Shown in pieces: positions 22,459 through 30,329 of a DNA stretch of 64,000 nucleotides. The stretch comes from Candidatus Eiseniibacteriota bacterium (GTDB taxonomy: Bacteria > Eisenbacteria > RBG-16-71-46), in assembly GCA_963717505.1 (NCBI GenBank), contig OY970342.1, positions 2,816,001-2,880,000 on the forward strand, read 5' to 3'. Numbering within the stretch: position 1 is the first letter of the stretch; each line of letters opens with the position of its first letter. The translations under genes and the position numbers were made by a program. The notes beneath the pieces are model-generated. The model saw only the letters and a list, made by a program, of their open reading frames with translations. It made no database searches and was not told where the DNA came from.

Positions 22459-24044
22459 TCGCGAACGGCGATCGACCCGCCGCGGCGGCCGGGTCGTCGC
22501 CGCCGCCGAGGTCCGGCGGATGGCGATTGGGGATCGCGGCCGTGGCGCTCGTGGCGCTCGCCTGGTGGCTGGCCCGCGGCAATGCGCCCCCCGGGCCGGG
22601 GTCGGCCGACGATCGGCATGCGCTCTACGACGAACTGGTGCAGAAGACTCTGGCCTGGCAGGCGTTCGCCCCGATCAAGGATCGCGCGCTGGGTATCGAC
22701 TTCGCCCGCGATGCCGAATCGCTGGAGGAAGAGTTCCTGCTCGCGGACACCAACGAGCGGCTGGTTCGCGCCCTGATCAAACTGAGCAATCTGCGGCGCG
22801 ATCGTCACCTGCGCGTCGAACCCGCGCCGGGGGGCATCCTGATCGGCGACGAGACCATGGAGGCGCCGATCCGGTTCCTGCCGGACTACGGCGACTCGAA
22901 CCAGACGCGGTATTTCGTTTCGACGGTCGGGAGCGAGCTCGAACTGTTCGTGGACGTCGAGGTGGCGCCCGGTGATCTCCTGGTGTCGGTGGCCGGCATG
23001 CCGGTGAGCGAGTACCGGCGGCGGATGGACCCCTACCTTCGCTACTCGACGCGCGCCCAGGGCGACTGGGAGTTCGCGCTCGCGCTCAACACCGACGAGT
23101 CGGTCTTCGGCCCCGAGCTGGAACTGGCAGGTGAAGTCACGTACGGACTCGAACATCCGGGCGGAACGGAATACGAGATCACCGTTCCATTCCTCGAGCC
23201 CGATTCGCTGGCCTGGCCGTCTCCGACGCCGCGCCGCTTCCGTGGCTTTCGCCCGGTGTTCGAAACCACGTGCTACCGGCTCTACGAGCCCGACGACGGC
23301 CGTCCGATCGTGCTGATCGACTGGCGTCAGTTCGACATGGTGATGATCCGCACCGATCTCGATTCATTGACCGCATGGGCCACCCGTCACGGCCGGCTCG
23401 GGCACGACGTCATCGTCGACGCCACGCAAAGCGAGGGCGGCGCCTACGCGGACCTGCTGGTGCGCACGTTGGTCGATCGACCGTTCCGCGGAATGATGTG
23501 CAATCTTCGAATCAGCGATCTGCGCGACGAATTGACCCAGAAGGCGATTCGTCACTATGGCGATCCTTCACCACAGGTCGAGTGGTACCGGAACGACGTC
23601 GCCCGCGCCGCGGCCGAGGGCCTTGCGTACACGCCCCCGGCGCCGCTCCGGCTGCACGGTTCGCGCGATGGAATCGTGCAGCCGGCGCCGGTTCACTTCC
23701 GTGGCCGACTCGTGTGCCTGCTCGCCCCGCCCGGTGGCTCGAGCCTGGATCAGTTCGCGTCCCTGGTGATCGACAACCAGCTCGGACACGCGATCGGCAT
23801 GCCGACCTCGGGCTACAGCAATGCCTGGGAGTGGGACGAAGTCGTCCGGTTCCCGACCAACGGACGTCCGGTCGCGCGCTGCTCGTGGTCGGTCGGCTAC
23901 TCGATCCGCCCGAACGGCGAGATCCTCGAGGGCAATCCCGCGCTGCCCCAGGAACGTGTACCCCTGACTCGAGCCAATTTCGCGACCTATCACGACGACC
24001 TGCTCGAGCGCGCCCTCACGTACTTGGCGCGACCGCCCGGCTAG
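22455..24044 (+). CDS. Membrane-anchored S41-like peptidase (start uncertain)
   Basis: N-terminal TM, PDZ-like PGDLLVSVAG, IVDATQSEGG, GGSSLDQFAS and AIGMPTSG, resembling S41 motifs; start may be CTG 22455, TTG 22527 or GTG 22542. Confidence 0.6.
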   Translation: MIANGDRPAAAAGSSPPPRSGGWRLGIAAVALVALAWWLARGNAPPGPGSADDRHALYDELVQKTLAWQAFAPIKDRALGIDFARDAESLEEEFLLADTNERLVRALIKLSNLRRDRHLRVEPAPGGILIGDETMEAPIRFLPDYGDSNQTRYFVSTVGSELELFVDVEVAPGDLLVSVAGMPVSEYRRRMDPYLRYSTRAQGDWEFALALNTDESVFGPELELAGEVTYGLEHPGGTEYEITVPFLEPDSLAWPSPTPRRFRGFRPVFETTCYRLYEPDDGRPIVLIDWRQFDMVMIRTDLDSLTAWATRHGRLGHDVIVDATQSEGGAYADLLVRTLVDRPFRGMMCNLRISDLRDELTQKAIRHYGDPSPQVEWYRNDVARAAAEGLAYTPPAPLRLHGSRDGIVQPAPVHFRGRLVCLLAPPGGSSLDQFASLVIDNQLGHAIGMPTSGYSNAWEWDEVVRFPTNGRPVARCSWSVGYSIRPNGEILEGNPALPQERVPLTRANFATYHDDLLERALTYLARPPG

Positions 24045-24670
24045 GCCTCCTGCATGCCGAACACGCTGGCGGCGACCAGACCGCCGGCAAGTGGACCGAC
24101 CAGATAGATCCACACGTGCGCCAGGCTGCCGCCACCGGTCACCAGGTGCACCAACGTCGGGCCGAGTCCGACGGCGGGATTGAAGGCGCCGCCTGAGAAC
24201 GGTCCGCCGGCAAAGGCCGCCGTGCACACGGTGAACCCGATCGCCAGGCCATAGAAGGAATTGCCGTGGGTGCGCTGCGACACCGCAACGTTGAGCACCA
24301 CCAGCGCGAGCGCGAAGGTGAACAGGAACTCGACCAGCAGGGCCGCCAGCGGCGAGACACCGGGTCCGGGCGCGGGCGAGAAGCCGGCGCCGGTGACGAA
24401 CGCCGAAACCGCGGCCGCCGCGATCGCGCCCAGGAGCTGCACCGCCACATAGCCGCCGAATTCGCTCGGCGTCAGCTTGCCCCGCATCAGGAGCGCAAGA
24501 GACACCGCCGGGTTGTAGTGGGCGCCCGAGATGTGTCCGCCCATGTAGACCATGATCATGAGCGCCGAGCCAATGGCCAGGGCGGCGAGCGGTGTGCCGT
24601 TCGCGACCACGAGCCCGATCGTCAGGACCAGGAAGAATGTGCCGATGAACTCGGTGAGGTAGCGTTTCAT
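24041..24670 (-). CDS. MIP/aquaporin family channel
   Basis: EFIGTFFLV, SGAHYNPAVS and GGAFNPAV (two NPA motifs); GGAGG RBS. Confidence 0.93.
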   Translation of the reverse strand: MKRYLTEFIGTFFLVLTIGLVVANGTPLAALAIGSALMIMVYMGGHISGAHYNPAVSLALLMRGKLTPSEFGGYVAVQLLGAIAAAAVSAFVTGAGFSPAPGPGVSPLAALLVEFLFTFALALVVLNVAVSQRTHGNSFYGLAIGFTVCTAAFAGGPFSGGAFNPAVGLGPTLVHLVTGGGSLAHVWIYLVGPLAGGLVAASVFGMQEA

Positions 24671-24808
24671 GAGGCCTCCGGGTCGAGCGCGGCGTACCCG
24701 CGCGTCGGAGAAGACCCGGCTCGCACCGGGCCGCGCATGGCCGGGCACGATACTCGACGGGGAATGGTTCGGCGAGCGACCCCGGGCCCCACCGGCGGCA
24801 ATCAGGGA

Positions 24809-25144: not shown

Positions 25145-26938
25145 ATGAGCCACTTCAAGCATTGGCACCAGGTTCTAGCCGGAGCGCTCGCCATGGGCAC
25201 GATCCTGAGCGGAGTGCTAGCCCCGGCAGCATTGGCTCAGAGCGGACGCCAGAGACTCCCTGCGGACGAAATCACCTACGTCCTCACCGCGGCCGCGTGG
25301 GGCGAGGCGCAGGAAGCGGCGATCGGCGCGGCCGGTGGTTCGGTCCGCACGCGTCACGCCAGCGGTGTTGCCATCGTCACCAGCGAGTCGACCGACTTTC
25401 TCGCTCGAGTAATGAGCAGCGGCGCATTCACCGGAGGTGGTCATAGCTTTGCGTTCACCGCTCCGTCCGGCGACGTGGTGTCCAGCACCGCCGAGGCGGC
25501 CAGCGGACCGATGCTCGATGCCGTCCTGCCGGGCGACGAGTTCTTGATCAACATGCAGTGGTCCCTGACGGCGATCGGCGCTTCGACCGCGTGGGCCGGC
25601 GGCTGGGACGGAACCGGAGTGCGGGTTGCGGTGATCGACGGCGGCATCTACCCCGCTCACGCGGATCTCGATGCCAATCTCGACCTCGCCGCATCGCGCT
25701 CATTCGTGTCGGGCCGCAACATCGGACAGGACAACGTGGGATTCCGGCGCGCGTGTCATCTGGCCGGGATCATTGCCGCCGAGGACAACGCCCTCGGAAC
25801 CGTGGGCGTTGCGCCCCACGCCACGATCATCGTCTGCAAGGTGCTCGACAATGGTCTCGGGACGTTCGACGCGCTGATCGAGGCGATCCTCTACGCCGCG
25901 GACCCGGTTTCAGAGGGGGGCGGCGGCGCCGACATCATCCTGATCGGTTTCGCCAACCCGGTGGATCCGAACACGCCCGAGGGGGACGACCTCAAGGATG
26001 CGTTCAAGCAGGCCGTGCGCCACGCCGCGGACCGCAACGTGCTCGTGATCGGCGGCGTTGGGGATCATGGGCTCGACCTGGACGATCGGGAGAACCCGAT
26101 CTACTTGCCGGGTGAAACTCCGCGCGTGATCGGGGTCTCGGCGACGGCGCCCTCGGGCTTCGCGGTCGGCTATCCCAACGGCAATGCCGACTTCGCGCGT
26201 CCTGCGATCTACACCAACTTCGGTCGCAAGGCCGTGGATCTCGCGGGTCCGGGCGGAGACGACTCGGCGCCGTTCGAGGGTGTCTGTCAGATCCCGCGCG
26301 TGCCGCTGGGGACTCAGACCCTGCCCTGCCCGGTGTTCGACATGGTGGTCGCTCCGGGATTCGTGTCGGGATCGACGCCGGTGTTCAGCTGGTCGCTGGG
26401 AACCGGGGCGGCCGCCGCCCACGTTGCGGCAGTCGCGGCTTTGGTCCGCCAGAAGTATCCGAGTATCCATGTGAACGAATTGCGCGCGCATCTCCTGCGA
26501 ACGGCGGTGGGAGGGCCCGGAAATCTCGAAACTGTCGGCAACGATCCGTACATCGGTCGTGGCCTGGTCCACGCCGGCAACGCGCTGACGGTGCCATTGG
26601 AGGATGCCGCCCCGATCGCAGCTCCCGGAATCCAATCGGTCGCGGCCGGCCGGGTGGGGCCAGCACTTCTCGAGCTCGCGATCGCGCCGCAGCCGGTTCG
26701 GGGGACGACCACCTTCACATTGGTGCTGCCAGAAGCCGGCAGGGCACGGCTCGAGGTGATCGACCTCGCCGGGCGTAATATCGCGGTGGTGTTCGAGGGC
26801 GAGGTGTCCGCGGGTCGCAGGAACGTGACCTGGAATGGGGCGGGCCGCAGCGGTCGCCTGCCGCCGGGTGCCTATTTCGCAAGTCTGTCAGTCGGCGGCG
26901 CGCGCGCGGTGCGGCGTCTGGTGGTGGTCGGCGAGTAA
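25145..26938 (+). CDS. Secreted S8-fold protein with degenerate catalytic residues and FlgD-Ig/T9SS-like CTD
   Basis: Signal peptide and GVRVAVIDGG; HGTHVAG appears as RACHLAG, AAGN as GVGD, and GTSMA as GTGAA; CTD PQP...DLAGR...W.G...LPPGAY. Confidence 0.85.
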   Translation: MSHFKHWHQVLAGALAMGTILSGVLAPAALAQSGRQRLPADEITYVLTAAAWGEAQEAAIGAAGGSVRTRHASGVAIVTSESTDFLARVMSSGAFTGGGHSFAFTAPSGDVVSSTAEAASGPMLDAVLPGDEFLINMQWSLTAIGASTAWAGGWDGTGVRVAVIDGGIYPAHADLDANLDLAASRSFVSGRNIGQDNVGFRRACHLAGIIAAEDNALGTVGVAPHATIIVCKVLDNGLGTFDALIEAILYAADPVSEGGGGADIILIGFANPVDPNTPEGDDLKDAFKQAVRHAADRNVLVIGGVGDHGLDLDDRENPIYLPGETPRVIGVSATAPSGFAVGYPNGNADFARPAIYTNFGRKAVDLAGPGGDDSAPFEGVCQIPRVPLGTQTLPCPVFDMVVAPGFVSGSTPVFSWSLGTGAAAAHVAAVAALVRQKYPSIHVNELRAHLLRTAVGGPGNLETVGNDPYIGRGLVHAGNALTVPLEDAAPIAAPGIQSVAAGRVGPALLELAIAPQPVRGTTTFTLVLPEAGRARLEVIDLAGRNIAVVFEGEVSAGRRNVTWNGAGRSGRLPPGAYFASLSVGGARAVRRLVVVGE

Positions 26939-26950
26939 CTCACGGCGCCG

Positions 26951-26983
26951 AAAATACGGGCCGGGCGGGGACGCCCGGCCCGT
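26951..26983 (-). terminator. Intrinsic terminator between convergent genes (possibly bidirectional)
   Basis: Perfect 12-bp stem ACGGGCCGGGCG/CGCCCGGCCCGT (26956-26983) with a 4-nt loop; short ATTTT tract after it on the minus strand. Confidence 0.7.
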
Positions 26984-27009: not shown

Positions 27010-28212
27010 CTAGCGGTTGGCCGAGGTGCCGGGCACCGAGAGATCGGTGATCGCCGCCGGTGGCGTCGTGTCGGGGGTGGGGCCACCGCCACCACCACCG
27101 ACTGTGCGCGGGTCCCAGGTCGTGTCGATGACCAGGCCCATGGCGTTGGCCACGTGCTGCCAGGGAATGTACTTGTGGTTGGACGCCGAGCCGCCGGAAT
27201 TCGATGAATCGTGCACCACCAGGAGTCCCTGTGGGAATCCGGAACCCATCGGGAAGTTGGTCACGTCGAGGCCGTCGGTGCCGCTCACCGCGTCGATGCT
27301 CCCGTTGGCGACGACGTTGAAGCTCCCGATGTACGCGTTGGCGTTCTGGCGATGGTAGACGTAGAAGCGACTGTTGCCCTGGCTCGAGACCACGAGATAG
27401 CCGTTGCCGTTGCTGGTGTAGTAGAGGCCCAGGCCTTCGACGTCGGCCACCAGGTTGCCGCCCGATCCGGTGCGGTCGACCTGGACACGGGTCGAGCCAT
27501 CGCCCGGCTCGGCGCCGTAGCGGTAGACGCCGACCGCCTCCTCGCCAATGAAGAACTGGGCGTGGACGTCGTCGGCCACTGAACCCTCGGTCTGACCGCC
27601 GACGTCGAACGACCGTACCATGGTTCCGCTGACGTTGCCGCCGCCCGCGTCCTGCAGCTCGTACTGCTGGCAGACGCCGGACTTGGCGTTGGCGAAGTAG
27701 TAGTACTTGCCCGTGGTCGGGCTGACGTACATGCAGCCGCCGTAGGGTTCGAGGCTGGCCGCCGTGGTGATGCTGCCCGCCGGCTCGAGCTGCCGCGTCG
27801 TGGGATTGACCTTGAAGCAGTCGAGCTGTCGGTTGATCTCGTCGTTGACCACTACCAGGGCGACTCGCGTGTGCGCGCCACCGCCACCGCTGAAGTTGCC
27901 GGCCAGCGGGAAGTTGTACCGCAGATCGAGGTTGTTGTAGTTCGTGCCCTCGATGTACTGAAGTTCGACGCCGTCGAGCCCATAGACCATCAAGCCGCCG
28001 CCCTTGTCGTCGCCGATCACCAGACTGAGCGACGGGTCGGTCGGATGGATCCAGATCGAGCTGTCGTCGGCGTTGTCGCCGGAATGGTGCGCGGGTCCGG
28101 TTTCGACCGTCGGCTGAACCGAAGCATCCTGTGCGAAAGCGACGCCGTGTAGGCCGCCCGAGAGGCCGGCGACCACCAGGAAGGCAAGAAGCCAGGTTCG
28201 GTGGCGTCGCAT
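27010..28212 (-). CDS. Beta-propeller phytase (3-phytase), secreted
   Basis: ADDSSIWIHPTDP, DKGGGLMVYGLDG, NNLDLRYNF, QTEGSVADD, ADVEGL, VSSQGNS, TDGLDV and FPQGLLVVHD; signal peptide; AGAGGA RBS. Confidence 0.92.
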   Translation of the reverse strand: MRRHRTWLLAFLVVAGLSGGLHGVAFAQDASVQPTVETGPAHHSGDNADDSSIWIHPTDPSLSLVIGDDKGGGLMVYGLDGVELQYIEGTNYNNLDLRYNFPLAGNFSGGGGAHTRVALVVVNDEINRQLDCFKVNPTTRQLEPAGSITTAASLEPYGGCMYVSPTTGKYYYFANAKSGVCQQYELQDAGGGNVSGTMVRSFDVGGQTEGSVADDVHAQFFIGEEAVGVYRYGAEPGDGSTRVQVDRTGSGGNLVADVEGLGLYYTSNGNGYLVVSSQGNSRFYVYHRQNANAYIGSFNVVANGSIDAVSGTDGLDVTNFPMGSGFPQGLLVVHDSSNSGGSASNHKYIPWQHVANAMGLVIDTTWDPRTVGGGGGGPTPDTTPPAAITDLSVPGTSANR

Positions 28213-28238
28213 CGTGTCGTTCCTCTTGGGCCTGATGG

Positions 28239-30329
28239 TCACTTGCGGGGTGAGCTGGAAGTCGGGCTGGGCGCCGGGGCGCTGCGTACCGTGAGATCGG
28301 TGATCGCGGCCGGCGGGGTGACATCGATCGCGCTGCCGCCGCCCTTGATCATGGTGAAATGGTCGCGAACCGCACCGGTGTCGTCGAGGAAGACCGCGTC
28401 CATTCGATTGCCATTGAGGTCGAGGACCATCGAGCCCAGCGCGTTGACGGAATAGAACATGGCGGGATGATTGAGCGATCCGCCGCTGCGCTGGCCCGAA
28501 CTGCCGGCCACCGTGTAGACCGCTCCCTGGTGCGGCCCGGTGCCCAGGCTCGCCTTGGCGTAGGCGCCATCACCGTCCTCGCGGCCGTCCCCGCCATCGA
28601 CCTTCATCGCGGGGGTCAGCGTGCTCGAAACGTCGTAGTGGCCGTCGAGCAGGAACGACCTCTCGTAGGCATGACTGTGGCCGGTGAGCACCAGGTCGAC
28701 GCCGGCGGCTTCGAGGATGGGCACCAGGTACCGGCGCATGTCGCCCATGCGGCCACCGCTATCGCCTGAGTTGTCCGAGTCGTGCGAACCCTTGGTGTAG
28801 GGCGGATGGTGCCAGTAGGCGATCACCCAGTCGCGGGTCGTCGCGGCCAGGTCGTTCTCGAGCCAGGTGGCCATGGCACCGGTGGCGGTGCGCGGCGTGC
28901 CCTCGGAATCGAGACAGATGAAGTGGATGTTGCCGTAGTCGAACGAGTAGTAGGCCTCGGTGCCCGAAGCCAGGCCTCCCGCCTCGCCCGCGGTCGGCAT
29001 GCTGAAGAACTCGTAGTAGTCGTTGGCCGCGCCCGAGCGCACCCCGTCGTGGTTGCCACGCGTCGGCCACAACACCGTGGTCTTGAGCGTCGCCTCGTAG
29101 GGGTCGAAAACGCCACCCTGGTATTCGGAGTCGGTTCCCGAGTCGTAGGCATTGTCGCCGAGCATGAGCCAGACGTCGATGTTGCGCGTGCCGTTGTAGT
29201 CGAGGAACGCATCACGCACACGAGTCTGCTCCGAGGTGCCGGTGCCCGCGTCGCCCAGGATCCACACCCGAGTCGGTTTGGGCGTCCCGGGGGTCGGGGC
29301 GGTCACGAAGCTGTGCTGGGCGTCGTCGCCTTCCAGGTCGAGCGCATCGGTTCCGATCGCGTAGTAGTAGCGCGTGTTGGGCGCGAGGCCCGTGATCTGG
29401 ATCTCGTGCTCGGTGGCGGCGGTCGCGTCGAATGCGTTCGAAGTCAGTGCGCCGATCGAGGTGCCGTAGCGAACACGGGTCGGGGCCGCGACGTCGGTCC
29501 GCCAGCGCACCACCACGCTGGTCGGCGTTCCAATCTGGAGGAACGGGCCCCGCGTGACCACCGGATCGGCCAATAGCTGAGCCGGAACGGTACTCGCCGC
29601 CGGTGCCGCGGGAATCCGCGCAGCCGCCGGAGCCGGAGCAGCGCCGGCCTGTATTCGGGCGGTCATGCGTTCACGCCGCGCGGTAGCGGCTTCGGTCATG
29701 CCGGCCCGTTGCTCGGCGTCGGCGATCGCCAGCTCGAGGGTCACCACCGGGCCCAGGCGCTTGCTCCCGGCCTGGAGTGAGGCGAGCGCCTGATCGGGCG
29801 ATCCGGCTTCGGTCAGGAGTCGGGCGTGCTCGATGTAGAGATCAGGGCCGATGTGTCGGGCGAACTCGATCACGCGAGCCAGGTCCGCCGCGGCGGCTTC
29901 CGGCTTCTTCTGCGCTTCGTGGATCCGGGCCCGCAGCTTCCACGCCGCGACGTCGCGCGGCTCGCGCTCCAAGTGGTGATCGATCGTGGTCAGCGCCGCC
30001 GCATGCTGGCGTTCGCCGAGCAGCAGGGCCGCGCGGCAGAGTTCGAGACCTGGCAGGTCAGGATCGAGCCGAGCTGCCAGCTCGAGGTCGGCGCGTGCGG
30101 CGACCAGGTTGCCGGCGATCAAATGCAGTTCGCCCCGCATGAGCAACTCGTGCGCGGGGCTGTCGGCTTGCGAGATTCGTTGGTCGGCGCGGGCGATGTC
30201 GTCCGCGAGTGGCTGGTGGGCGAGAGCCGGCGCGGCCAGCGCCGAGAGCAATGCGACCACGACGCCTGCGATCCGGCGGGGATCGCGGTGGCTCGGGAAA
30301 CGATCGAGACGCGGGATTCCGGAGGTCAT
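28239..30329 (-). CDS. TPR + FN3-like + purple acid phosphatase (metallophosphoesterase), secreted
   Basis: Signal peptide, TPR-like helical N-terminus, TRGPFLQ...GLAPNTRYYY, and all five PAP motifs (GDAG, GDNAY, GNHD, WHHP, GHSH). Confidence 0.9.
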   Translation of the reverse strand: MTSGIPRLDRFPSHRDPRRIAGVVVALLSALAAPALAHQPLADDIARADQRISQADSPAHELLMRGELHLIAGNLVAARADLELAARLDPDLPGLELCRAALLLGERQHAAALTTIDHHLEREPRDVAAWKLRARIHEAQKKPEAAAADLARVIEFARHIGPDLYIEHARLLTEAGSPDQALASLQAGSKRLGPVVTLELAIADAEQRAGMTEAATARRERMTARIQAGAAPAPAAARIPAAPAASTVPAQLLADPVVTRGPFLQIGTPTSVVVRWRTDVAAPTRVRYGTSIGALTSNAFDATAATEHEIQITGLAPNTRYYYAIGTDALDLEGDDAQHSFVTAPTPGTPKPTRVWILGDAGTGTSEQTRVRDAFLDYNGTRNIDVWLMLGDNAYDSGTDSEYQGGVFDPYEATLKTTVLWPTRGNHDGVRSGAANDYYEFFSMPTAGEAGGLASGTEAYYSFDYGNIHFICLDSEGTPRTATGAMATWLENDLAATTRDWVIAYWHHPPYTKGSHDSDNSGDSGGRMGDMRRYLVPILEAAGVDLVLTGHSHAYERSFLLDGHYDVSSTLTPAMKVDGGDGREDGDGAYAKASLGTGPHQGAVYTVAGSSGQRSGGSLNHPAMFYSVNALGSMVLDLNGNRMDAVFLDDTGAVRDHFTMIKGGGSAIDVTPPAAITDLTVRSAPAPSPTSSSPRK

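Follow-up and report, generated by a model that had tools for sequence, protein, structure and literature searches.

The window considered here is a 64,000-nt stretch of DNA (G000:C1:2816001-2880000) from G000, the single-contig 4.16-Mb genome of a Candidatus Eiseniibacteriota bacterium. Two secreted enzymes encoded side by side in it, a beta-propeller phytase and a purple acid phosphatase (PAP), end in the same short tail. We put the chance at somewhat better than even, about 0.55, that this tail is a donor strand which docks enzymes having no C-terminal domain (CTD) of the type IX secretion system (T9SS) onto a T9SS-anchored scaffold, as sequence comparison and structure modelling both suggest. 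The tail, consisting of a Gly-rich linker, the motif D-T-x-P-P-x-x-I-x-D-L and 1 to 25 variable residues, would then be the linker and strand A of a fibronectin type III (FN3) domain, detached and set at the C-terminus of CTD-less secreted enzymes. After Sec export it would insert into an FN3 domain that is made without its strand A (A-less), and the receptors would be the mature N-termini of three proteins named here FnX, FnY and FnY2. The conserved tails, the A-less acceptors, their operon, the co-occurrence of donors and acceptors and the fit of a tail in a modelled complex are computed results, and are described in turn below.

Conserved tails in two enzyme families

The PAP gene (P0121; 28239-30329, minus strand) is an open reading frame (ORF) of 696 codons for a signal peptide, TPR repeats, the domains Pur_ac_phosph_N (PF16656, 43 bits against a cut-off of 30) and Metallophos (PF00149, 59 bits against 21.5) and the C-terminal tail. 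The phytase gene (P0001; 27010-28212, minus strand) encodes 400 residues with a signal peptide, a Phytase domain (PF02333, 278.5 bits against a cut-off of 21, residues 30-379 aligning to positions 21-370 of the 375 in the profile) and again the tail. The phytase ends in GGGGGPTPDTTPPAAITDLSVPGTSANR and PAP in KGGGSAIDVTPPAAITDLTVRSAPAPSPTSSSPRK, and both tails are laid out as a Gly-rich linker, D[TV]TPPAAITDL[ST]V and then 9 or 17 more residues. In PAP the linker KGGGSAI (28326-28346) joins the catalytic domain to the motif DVTPPAAITDLTV (28287-28325), behind which come the variable residues RSAPAPSPTSSSPRK and a TGA stop (28239-28286); in the phytase the linker VGGGGGGPTP (27073-27102) leads to the motif DTTPPAAITDLSV (27034-27072). 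Each motif, a putative orphan FN3 strand A, is recognized by motif scan, alignment and hidden Markov model (HMM), and that of the phytase also figures in the complex model described below. Their position at the two C-termini after Gly-rich linkers, reported in a first-pass annotation of the window, agrees with the coordinates and the ORFs. The same annotation saw no Ig-like CTD on the phosphatases; indeed the Pfam scan matches FlgD_ig (PF13860) in neither of them, so that they are not type A CTD cargo, and does match it in a convergent subtilase. A dockerin (PF00404) was likewise found by the Pfam scan in neither enzyme, nor was a complete seven-strand FN3 domain (PF00041), both chains stopping after strand A.

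The 39-nt motifs of the two genes differ at nine positions, with synonymous changes in five codons and non-synonymous ones in two, and they share an identical stretch of 15 nt (GCGATCACCGATCTC). Such synonymous differences had been read as a sign of selection on the peptide, and the homologs of both enzymes bear this out. Nine of 30 close phytase homologs examined by sequence (P0004, P0005, P0006, P0007, P0009, P0012, P0013, P0038 and P0110, with 63-78% identity) keep the tail, which is preceded by ...WDPRxxG and a linker that varies; in P0008 the motif runs on into a longer extension, in P0022 it is degenerate, and the others carry a FlgD_ig CTD (P0015, 68% identity, at the very position of the tail), PKD or Big modules with a membrane anchor, or nothing. 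On the PAP side the tail follows directly after ...FTIxKG in 9 of 18 homologs (P0123, P0136 to P0142 and P0163, with 62-88% identity), and the most similar of these, P0123 (88% identical), ends in TGASGSPSSSPRK. Remoter PAP homologs have a CTD, real FN3 domains or dockerins (P0173) at this junction, and all 15 PAP orthologs from related genomes place a FlgD_ig-like CTD of about 100 residues straight after ...FTIxKG (14 of 14 when L015, from the unpublished genome G026, is set aside). The alignments thus indicate that in both enzymes the tail takes the place of the CTD and that the two are interchangeable at the junction. When 20 tails are aligned, D11 and P15 never vary, and P14, I18 and L21 reach a conservation of at least 90%; the linkers and the 1-25 post-motif residues differ from tail to tail. 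This argues for selection on the motif itself. Modules are swapped frequently at this PAP junction (...FTIxKG, near window position 28344): over about 100 homologs, what stands behind it may be a FlgD_ig CTD, one to eight FN3 domains, PKD or Big modules, a dockerin, linkers rich in Pro and Thr, CBM-like modules or nothing at all.

The stops behind the motifs are backed by independent sequence. A metagenome scan with PAP recovered the tail in 2 of 80 loci (L031 and L032; the 184-kb contig carrying P0123 lies outside these 80), and in both contigs the chain stops after the tail. A contig from read run X4 reaches across the motif and stop of the phytase; it has three substitutions there and is free of indels, and the two that fall within the tail are synonymous. 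The first-pass annotation had called for a check of the reads around both stop codons, and this succeeded for the phytase; the read-run contigs cover the window in parts, and PAP positions 28239-28328 fall outside them. A complete FN3 domain behind the motif, which would have spoken for erroneous or recent stops, is not what the homologs show. The tail-bearing PAP of L031 has no phytase adjacent to it, and the other genes of L031 are syntenic with G000 (50-68% amino-acid identity over the clearly matching genes); together with the presence of tails in both families this marks the tail as a property of each enzyme clade within the lineage and not as a scar of rearrangement. For the same reasons, that is, the L031 PAP without adjacent phytase and the independent possession of tails by the two families, we ruled out that an inserted phytase gene left the two motifs behind as direct repeats. 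Among 206 genomes of the phylum no second one has a PAP above 66% identity, and a tail-bearing PAP at that level was found in G000 only.

The motif itself can be assigned to a known fold. The strict pattern D..PP[AG].[IV].DL, scanned in six frames over the whole of G000, has four matches, a count far above chance expectation; besides the two tails these are a true FN3 start and a spurious frame. A profile of the 20 tails run against 1.84 billion representative proteins gave 192 matches at E <= 0.001, with multi-repeat proteins of up to 31 matched stretches on top; since such FN3 proteins swamp the list, it speaks for the identity of the domain and yields no figure for enrichment at C-termini. 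In four of six hits (P0256, P0258, P0273 and P0278) the motif is the linker and strand A that open each FN3 copy, and it is followed by the signature ...LTWTAPGDDGxxGxAxxYDIRYS. By sequence, then, the tail motif consists of the linker and strand A that are canonical for FN3 domains of the "WTAPGDDG" type, and the earlier remark that it resembles a first FN3 strand proved right. Another protein, P0331, is built of a signal peptide, an FN3 domain from strand B on, a complete FN3 domain and an orphan C-terminal motif. The FN3 arrays of P0256 and P0258 end (that of P0256 also starts) with CxxCxxCxxxCP cysteine motifs, typical of 4Fe-4S ferredoxin domains and an odd partner for an FN3 type otherwise found in secreted proteins.

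Putative acceptors, tagged cargo and genomic setting

A scan of G000 for the WTAPGDDG signature and an HMM of the tails run over all its six-frame ORFs returned four credible donors (the phytase, PAP, FnY and FnY2) and three proteins in which the signal peptide leads directly into strand B of a first FN3 domain. FnX (P0391; G000:C1:92832-93824, minus strand) consists of an A-less FN3 domain, a further FN3 domain and a FlgD_ig CTD (41.3 bits, cut-off 27). FnY (G000:C1:93826-94650, minus strand) has an A-less FN3 domain, an FN3 domain and an orphan tail beginning PDTMAPDMVRDLSVGWVHVSW, and FnY2 (G000:C1:3291040-3291800, minus strand) is built in the same way and ends in TPDQTAPAAVNDLTIGT, its tail variant TAPAAVNDL lying outside the narrow motif pattern. 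In FnX the Pfam alignment to fn3 sets in at position 14 of the 84 in the profile, five residues past the predicted signal-peptide cut, and in FnY at position 9; complete domains start at 2-5. FnX and FnY are thus predicted from their sequences to be made without one strand of the sandwich, as a donor-strand acceptor should be. The A-less N-terminus recurs in 28 of 28 FnX homologs, and a signal peptide followed by strand B in 29 of 30 FnX loci. An incomplete FN3 domain on a surface scaffold had been anticipated by the first-pass annotation, and the A-less domain on the CTD-bearing FnX appears to be just that. A further CTD protein (G000:C1:201991-202998, minus strand) has a single WTTPGDDG FN3 domain with about 37 low-complexity residues (SDPSNNVTNLSSNPTQ...) before strand B and no clear strand-A motif; going by its sequence, it may be a fourth acceptor. 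FnY2 is divergently encoded from a phytase paralog (the pair spans G000:C1:3291040-3293880) that is 47% identical to the window phytase and has an FN3-like module and a CTD of its own, which connects the scaffold proteins to phytate use a second time.

FnX stands in a conserved operon. A tail-bearing FnY lies directly upstream of it in 28 of 30 loci, and a homolog of the PorV/PorQ family of barrels directly downstream in all 30; in G000 the barrel gene starts 15 nt after the FnX stop, and its product matches NF033709 (123.9 bits, cut-off 90) and carries a C-terminal LysM domain (PF01476, 44.8 bits). That the scaffold belongs to a PorV/PorQ-type operon was not foreseen in the first-pass annotation. 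Within family f1, FnX is found at E <= 1e-40 in 78 of the 88 genomes other than G000, and outside the family in 3 of 117; the homologs are labelled Candidatus Eisenbacteria by their sources. Ten of the FnY tails diverge from the narrow motif pattern. Throughout the 28 loci the FnY tails also show, after the strand-A motif, a conserved aromatic stretch (G/S-F-V-W-F/L-G-W-H) without counterpart in the cargo tails, and this could be a second strand that reinforces the link between FnY and FnX. As for the secretion system, G000 has 126 FlgD_ig matches and a SprA match of 226 bits, over the curated cut-off. The SprA (TIGR04189) match at G000:C1:2397432-2401563 falls into five or more pieces that lie in different open frames, of which the 226-bit piece is the one over the cut-off, and the gene may be very divergent or frameshifted.

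Structure models point in the same direction. In an AlphaFold2 (AF2) model of PAP (45-row alignment) the mean predicted local distance difference test (pLDDT) score is 82.1 and the tail residues 670-696 stay below 50; the tail is thus disordered, docks neither on the TPR region nor elsewhere on its own protein, and is available for action in trans. The FnY model from AF2 (pLDDT 88.1) matches tandem FNIII structures in the PDB, and its domain 1 opens with strand B. For the complex, FnX residues 35-240 (60-row alignment) were modelled with the 30-residue phytase tail (20-row alignment), and the score was 0.65 (runs of 0.62, 0.69 and 0.65) against 0.02 for the best of three controls; among solved complexes, 58 of 80 attain this level, and among mismatched pairs 2 of 110, a comparison that is rough as our own alignments were used. 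The runs share at least 78% of their contacts, with a partner pLDDT of at least 60. Tail residues 12-24 (TTPPAAITDLSVP) contact FnX at 42-47 (strand B), 109-115 (strand F) and 119-129 (strand G), which in the model is the place of strand A/A' in the FN3 fold, and the lowest-error contacts are made by I18 and L21, the most conserved hydrophobic residues of the motif. The co-folding of tail and FN3 domain suggested in the first-pass annotation accordingly placed the tail in the vacant slot of the predicted structure.

The tail is not limited to phosphatases. We ran the tail profile on four related f1 genomes besides G000 and on five genomes without FnX at E <= 1e-40. Proteins other than FnY that end 1-3 residues past the motif were found in G013 (two), G012 (one), G019 (two) and G010 (two), with a right-handed beta-helix or a complete FN3 domain before the tag. 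G025 and G027 each have one GHL15-type hydrolase (GHL15 plus CBM) ending in the tag, and each one protein in which a signal peptide is followed by strand B of a WTAPGNDG domain. Over the tagged proteins of these six genomes the distance from motif to stop is 1-8 residues. In G028, G033 and G038 neither tagged proteins nor A-less acceptors were detected, the acceptors being sought among the hits of one query. Seven of the ten genomes therefore have both orphan tails and A-less acceptors and three have neither, a co-occurrence that is suggestive only. Judging from these sequences the tag is general and not specific to phosphatases. Of the earlier idea of a docking tag on phosphate-scavenging enzymes, the donor-strand part is thus supported by computation and the restriction to phosphatases is not; nor can the tail be called an orphan of two enzymes, as close homologs of both and unrelated proteins carry it too.

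Returning to the window, the PAP and phytase genes lie 27 nt apart on the same strand, and their 26-nt spacer (28213-28238), from the PAP stop to the phytase ATG, contains AAGAGGA (28221-28227) 8 nt before that ATG. On the 3' side of the phytase stop there is a GC-rich hairpin (12-bp stem, 26956-26983) with a U-rich tract (26948-26983 together, minus strand), with a folding energy of -33.3 kcal/mol over a 71-nt stretch (z = -3.63). A simple terminator pattern scan called none here; the hairpin and U-tract are the likely terminator of a PAP-phytase two-gene unit. The phytase frame is open for 119 codons 5' of its ATG, into the 3' end of PAP (27010-28569, minus strand), probably because of the 68% G+C content. 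The subtilase with the FlgD_ig CTD (25190-26938, plus strand) converges on the phytase and ends 72 nt past the phytase stop, which leaves no space for a lost domain. Just upstream of the subtilase and on the opposite strand is a gene assigned from its sequence to the MIP family of channels (24041-24750, minus strand). The completeness of G000 by marker genes is 86.68% despite its single 4.16-Mb contig, and the marker set may suit the lineage poorly.

Proposed mechanism and its rivals

Under donor-strand complementation, the detached strand would be borne by enzymes whose CTD was lost or never existed, and FnX would be the point at which the assembly is tied to the cell. It has a CTD and its gene is directly upstream of that for a LysM-tailed outer-membrane barrel, so the assembly would be held at the cell surface through the FnX CTD and the PorV/PorQ-family barrel. 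FnY and FnY2 bear a donor tail of their own besides the acceptor domain, and chains running from cargo to FnY to FnX would therefore be possible. In G000 the cargo would be the phytase and PAP, two phosphate-scavenging enzymes brought together on the surface. Real binding, the acceptor used by each tail, the site of assembly (either in the periplasm with joint export, or at the surface) and a benefit for phosphate acquisition are what we infer from the computed results. More tentatively, the whole may amount to a cellulosome-like display built from split FN3 domains, including hitch-hiker export of tagged cargo through the T9SS and a natural tag/catcher pair. A "strand-A tag" of 11-13 residues would lock non-covalently, but as deeply as a part of the fold, into A-less FN3 receptors; adaptors of the FnY type, with the receptor at the N-terminus and the tag at the C-terminus, would chain or polymerise; and FnX would end the chain, its CTD taking the assembly through or onto the type IX machinery to a dedicated, wall-tied PorQ-like barrel.

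Several points weigh against donor-strand docking as outlined above. FnX is widespread in family f1 (the 78 of 88 genomes), yet the tail-bearing PAP is in G000 alone of 206, so that FnX is not dedicated to these phosphatases. In the monomer model of FnY the tail motif has a pLDDT of 88 but is not drawn as a strand, and complementation in cis is not evident. The modelled complex consists in effect of the halves of a split FN3 domain, which the predictor may complete from solved FN3 structures; a high score can then reflect likeness to known folds, and the model shows compatibility, not specificity or the choice of acceptor. The co-occurrence sample is small (ten genomes), the genomes are related, and the acceptors come from a single query's hits. 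For the joint export of a complex through the T9SS we found no precedent in the literature at the level of abstracts.

Three other explanations of the tail have to be considered. It might be a sorting or processing signal for other machinery, for instance a site of proteolysis or glycosylation, or a minimal signal for export by the T9SS or by a PorV-like shuttle. The enzymes do need some outer-membrane route, the tail sits exactly where homologs have CTDs or other sorting modules, and the best NCBIfam match of the phytase is to a myxosortase-dependent phytase-like phosphatase (264 bits, below the cut-off of 440), a type of match showing that phytases often bear C-terminal sorting tags. We nevertheless regard such a signal as unlikely. 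The 40-residue tails match none of the NCBIfam families at E up to 10, and the residues behind the motif (PGTSANR in the phytase and the 28239-28286 segment, RSAPAPSPTSSSPRK, in PAP) include no hydrophobic helix or basic cluster, so that neither tail has the combination of motif, hydrophobic helix and basic cluster that defines LPXTG, PEP-CTERM, GlyGly-CTERM or MYXO-CTERM. A distance of 1 to 25 residues from motif to C-terminus is ill-suited to machinery that reads the extreme C-terminus, and neither the co-occurrence with A-less FN3 domains nor the tail on FnY beside FnX would be accounted for.

The tails could also be vestigial stubs of a deleted FN3 (and CTD) module, kept as a harmless or floppy end. 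With a motif that is a generic FN3 start, a PAP junction that swaps modules often and bears real FN3 domains in many homologs, and cases such as the degenerate motif of P0022 and the long extension of P0008, this has some appeal; but a stub would hardly preserve its motif columns amid drifting flanks in two families, among homologs with as little as 62% identity, nor be cut at the identical point in unrelated cargo of seven genomes. As both in-tail changes of the strain variant are synonymous and matching A-less domains exist, we consider this explanation distinctly improbable. Lastly, the TPR domain of PAP might be the receptor of the tail, joining the phytase to PAP or regulating PAP. TPR domains of other systems bind extended C-terminal peptides, and the tail-bearing PAP clade does have an N-terminal TPR region. 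This is nonetheless a very remote prospect, given that the AF2 model of PAP leaves the tail (670-696, pLDDT < 50) undocked on the TPR region, that CTD-bearing PAP orthologs have TPR repeats too, that tagged cargo in other genomes has no TPR partner nearby, and that the tail-bearing PAP of L031 has no adjacent phytase.

Relation to known systems and biological meaning

The closest parallel to the proposed docking by a donated strand A is offered by the type V pili (FimA/Mfa1) of Bacteroidota. There the mature acceptor is without its N-terminal strand, which has been removed, and the groove is filled by the C-terminal strand of another polypeptide. Both systems belong to T9SS-bearing lineages and both would allow head-to-tail chains, FnY being acceptor and donor at once. 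In contrast to the pili, the vacancy here is encoded in the gene and would be present once the signal peptide is cut, and neither a lipoprotein precursor nor a proteolytic step is apparent; the fold is that of FN3 and not of a pilin; enzymes are among the donors (phytase, PAP, beta-helix and GHL15 proteins); and the terminal acceptor has a CTD and is encoded beside a PorV/PorQ-like barrel. Chaperone-usher pili similarly complete an incomplete Ig-like sandwich in trans with a strand of another protein, but the strand they lack is G, at the C-terminal end, and it is supplied by an N-terminal extension. Such pili further depend on a periplasmic chaperone and an usher, whereas the operon here comprises FnY, FnX and the barrel only (no search was aimed at a chaperone or usher).

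With the cohesin-dockerin pairs of cellulosomes the tails share the principle of a short C-terminal module by which diverse secreted hydrolases dock on a scaffold; in both, adaptors may bridge to an anchoring protein that is itself fixed to the wall, here via LysM. The difference is that dockerins, with about 70 residues, are Ca-binding domains with a fold of their own and bind a cohesin that is complete, while the present tag, of about 11-13 residues, is predicted to be incorporated into the fold of its acceptor. Cargo with a T9SS CTD (FlgD_ig / type A) resembles the tagged enzymes in the C-terminal position of the module after a linker, but that CTD is a complete beta-sandwich of 80-100 residues and the tail a single strand. 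The arrangement of a barrel encoded beside a CTD-bearing surface protein that it probably holds recalls PorQ-PorZ and PorV-PorU of Porphyromonas gingivalis; here, however, the barrel has its own LysM tail, and the FnX it would hold starts with an A-less FN3 domain and is preceded by the tail-bearing FnY. To our knowledge no strand-tag cargo is known for PorZ or PorU, and in the literature, as far as abstracts reveal, we found no description of an FN3 strand-tag docking system of this kind.

If the proposed docking is true, it would represent a third route of surface display in type-IX-secreting bacteria, beside possession of a CTD and lipoprotein anchoring, and one in which a very short tag becomes part of the fold of its receptor. 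The conserved operon of FnY, FnX and the PorQ/LysM barrel would gain a function, and the pair of tag and receptor would offer a natural split-FN3 system for protein engineering. For the organism itself, it would explain how CTD-less enzymes of an uncultured soil phylum get to the cell surface or are retained there, and would link the scavenging of phytate and organic phosphate to a defined surface scaffold.

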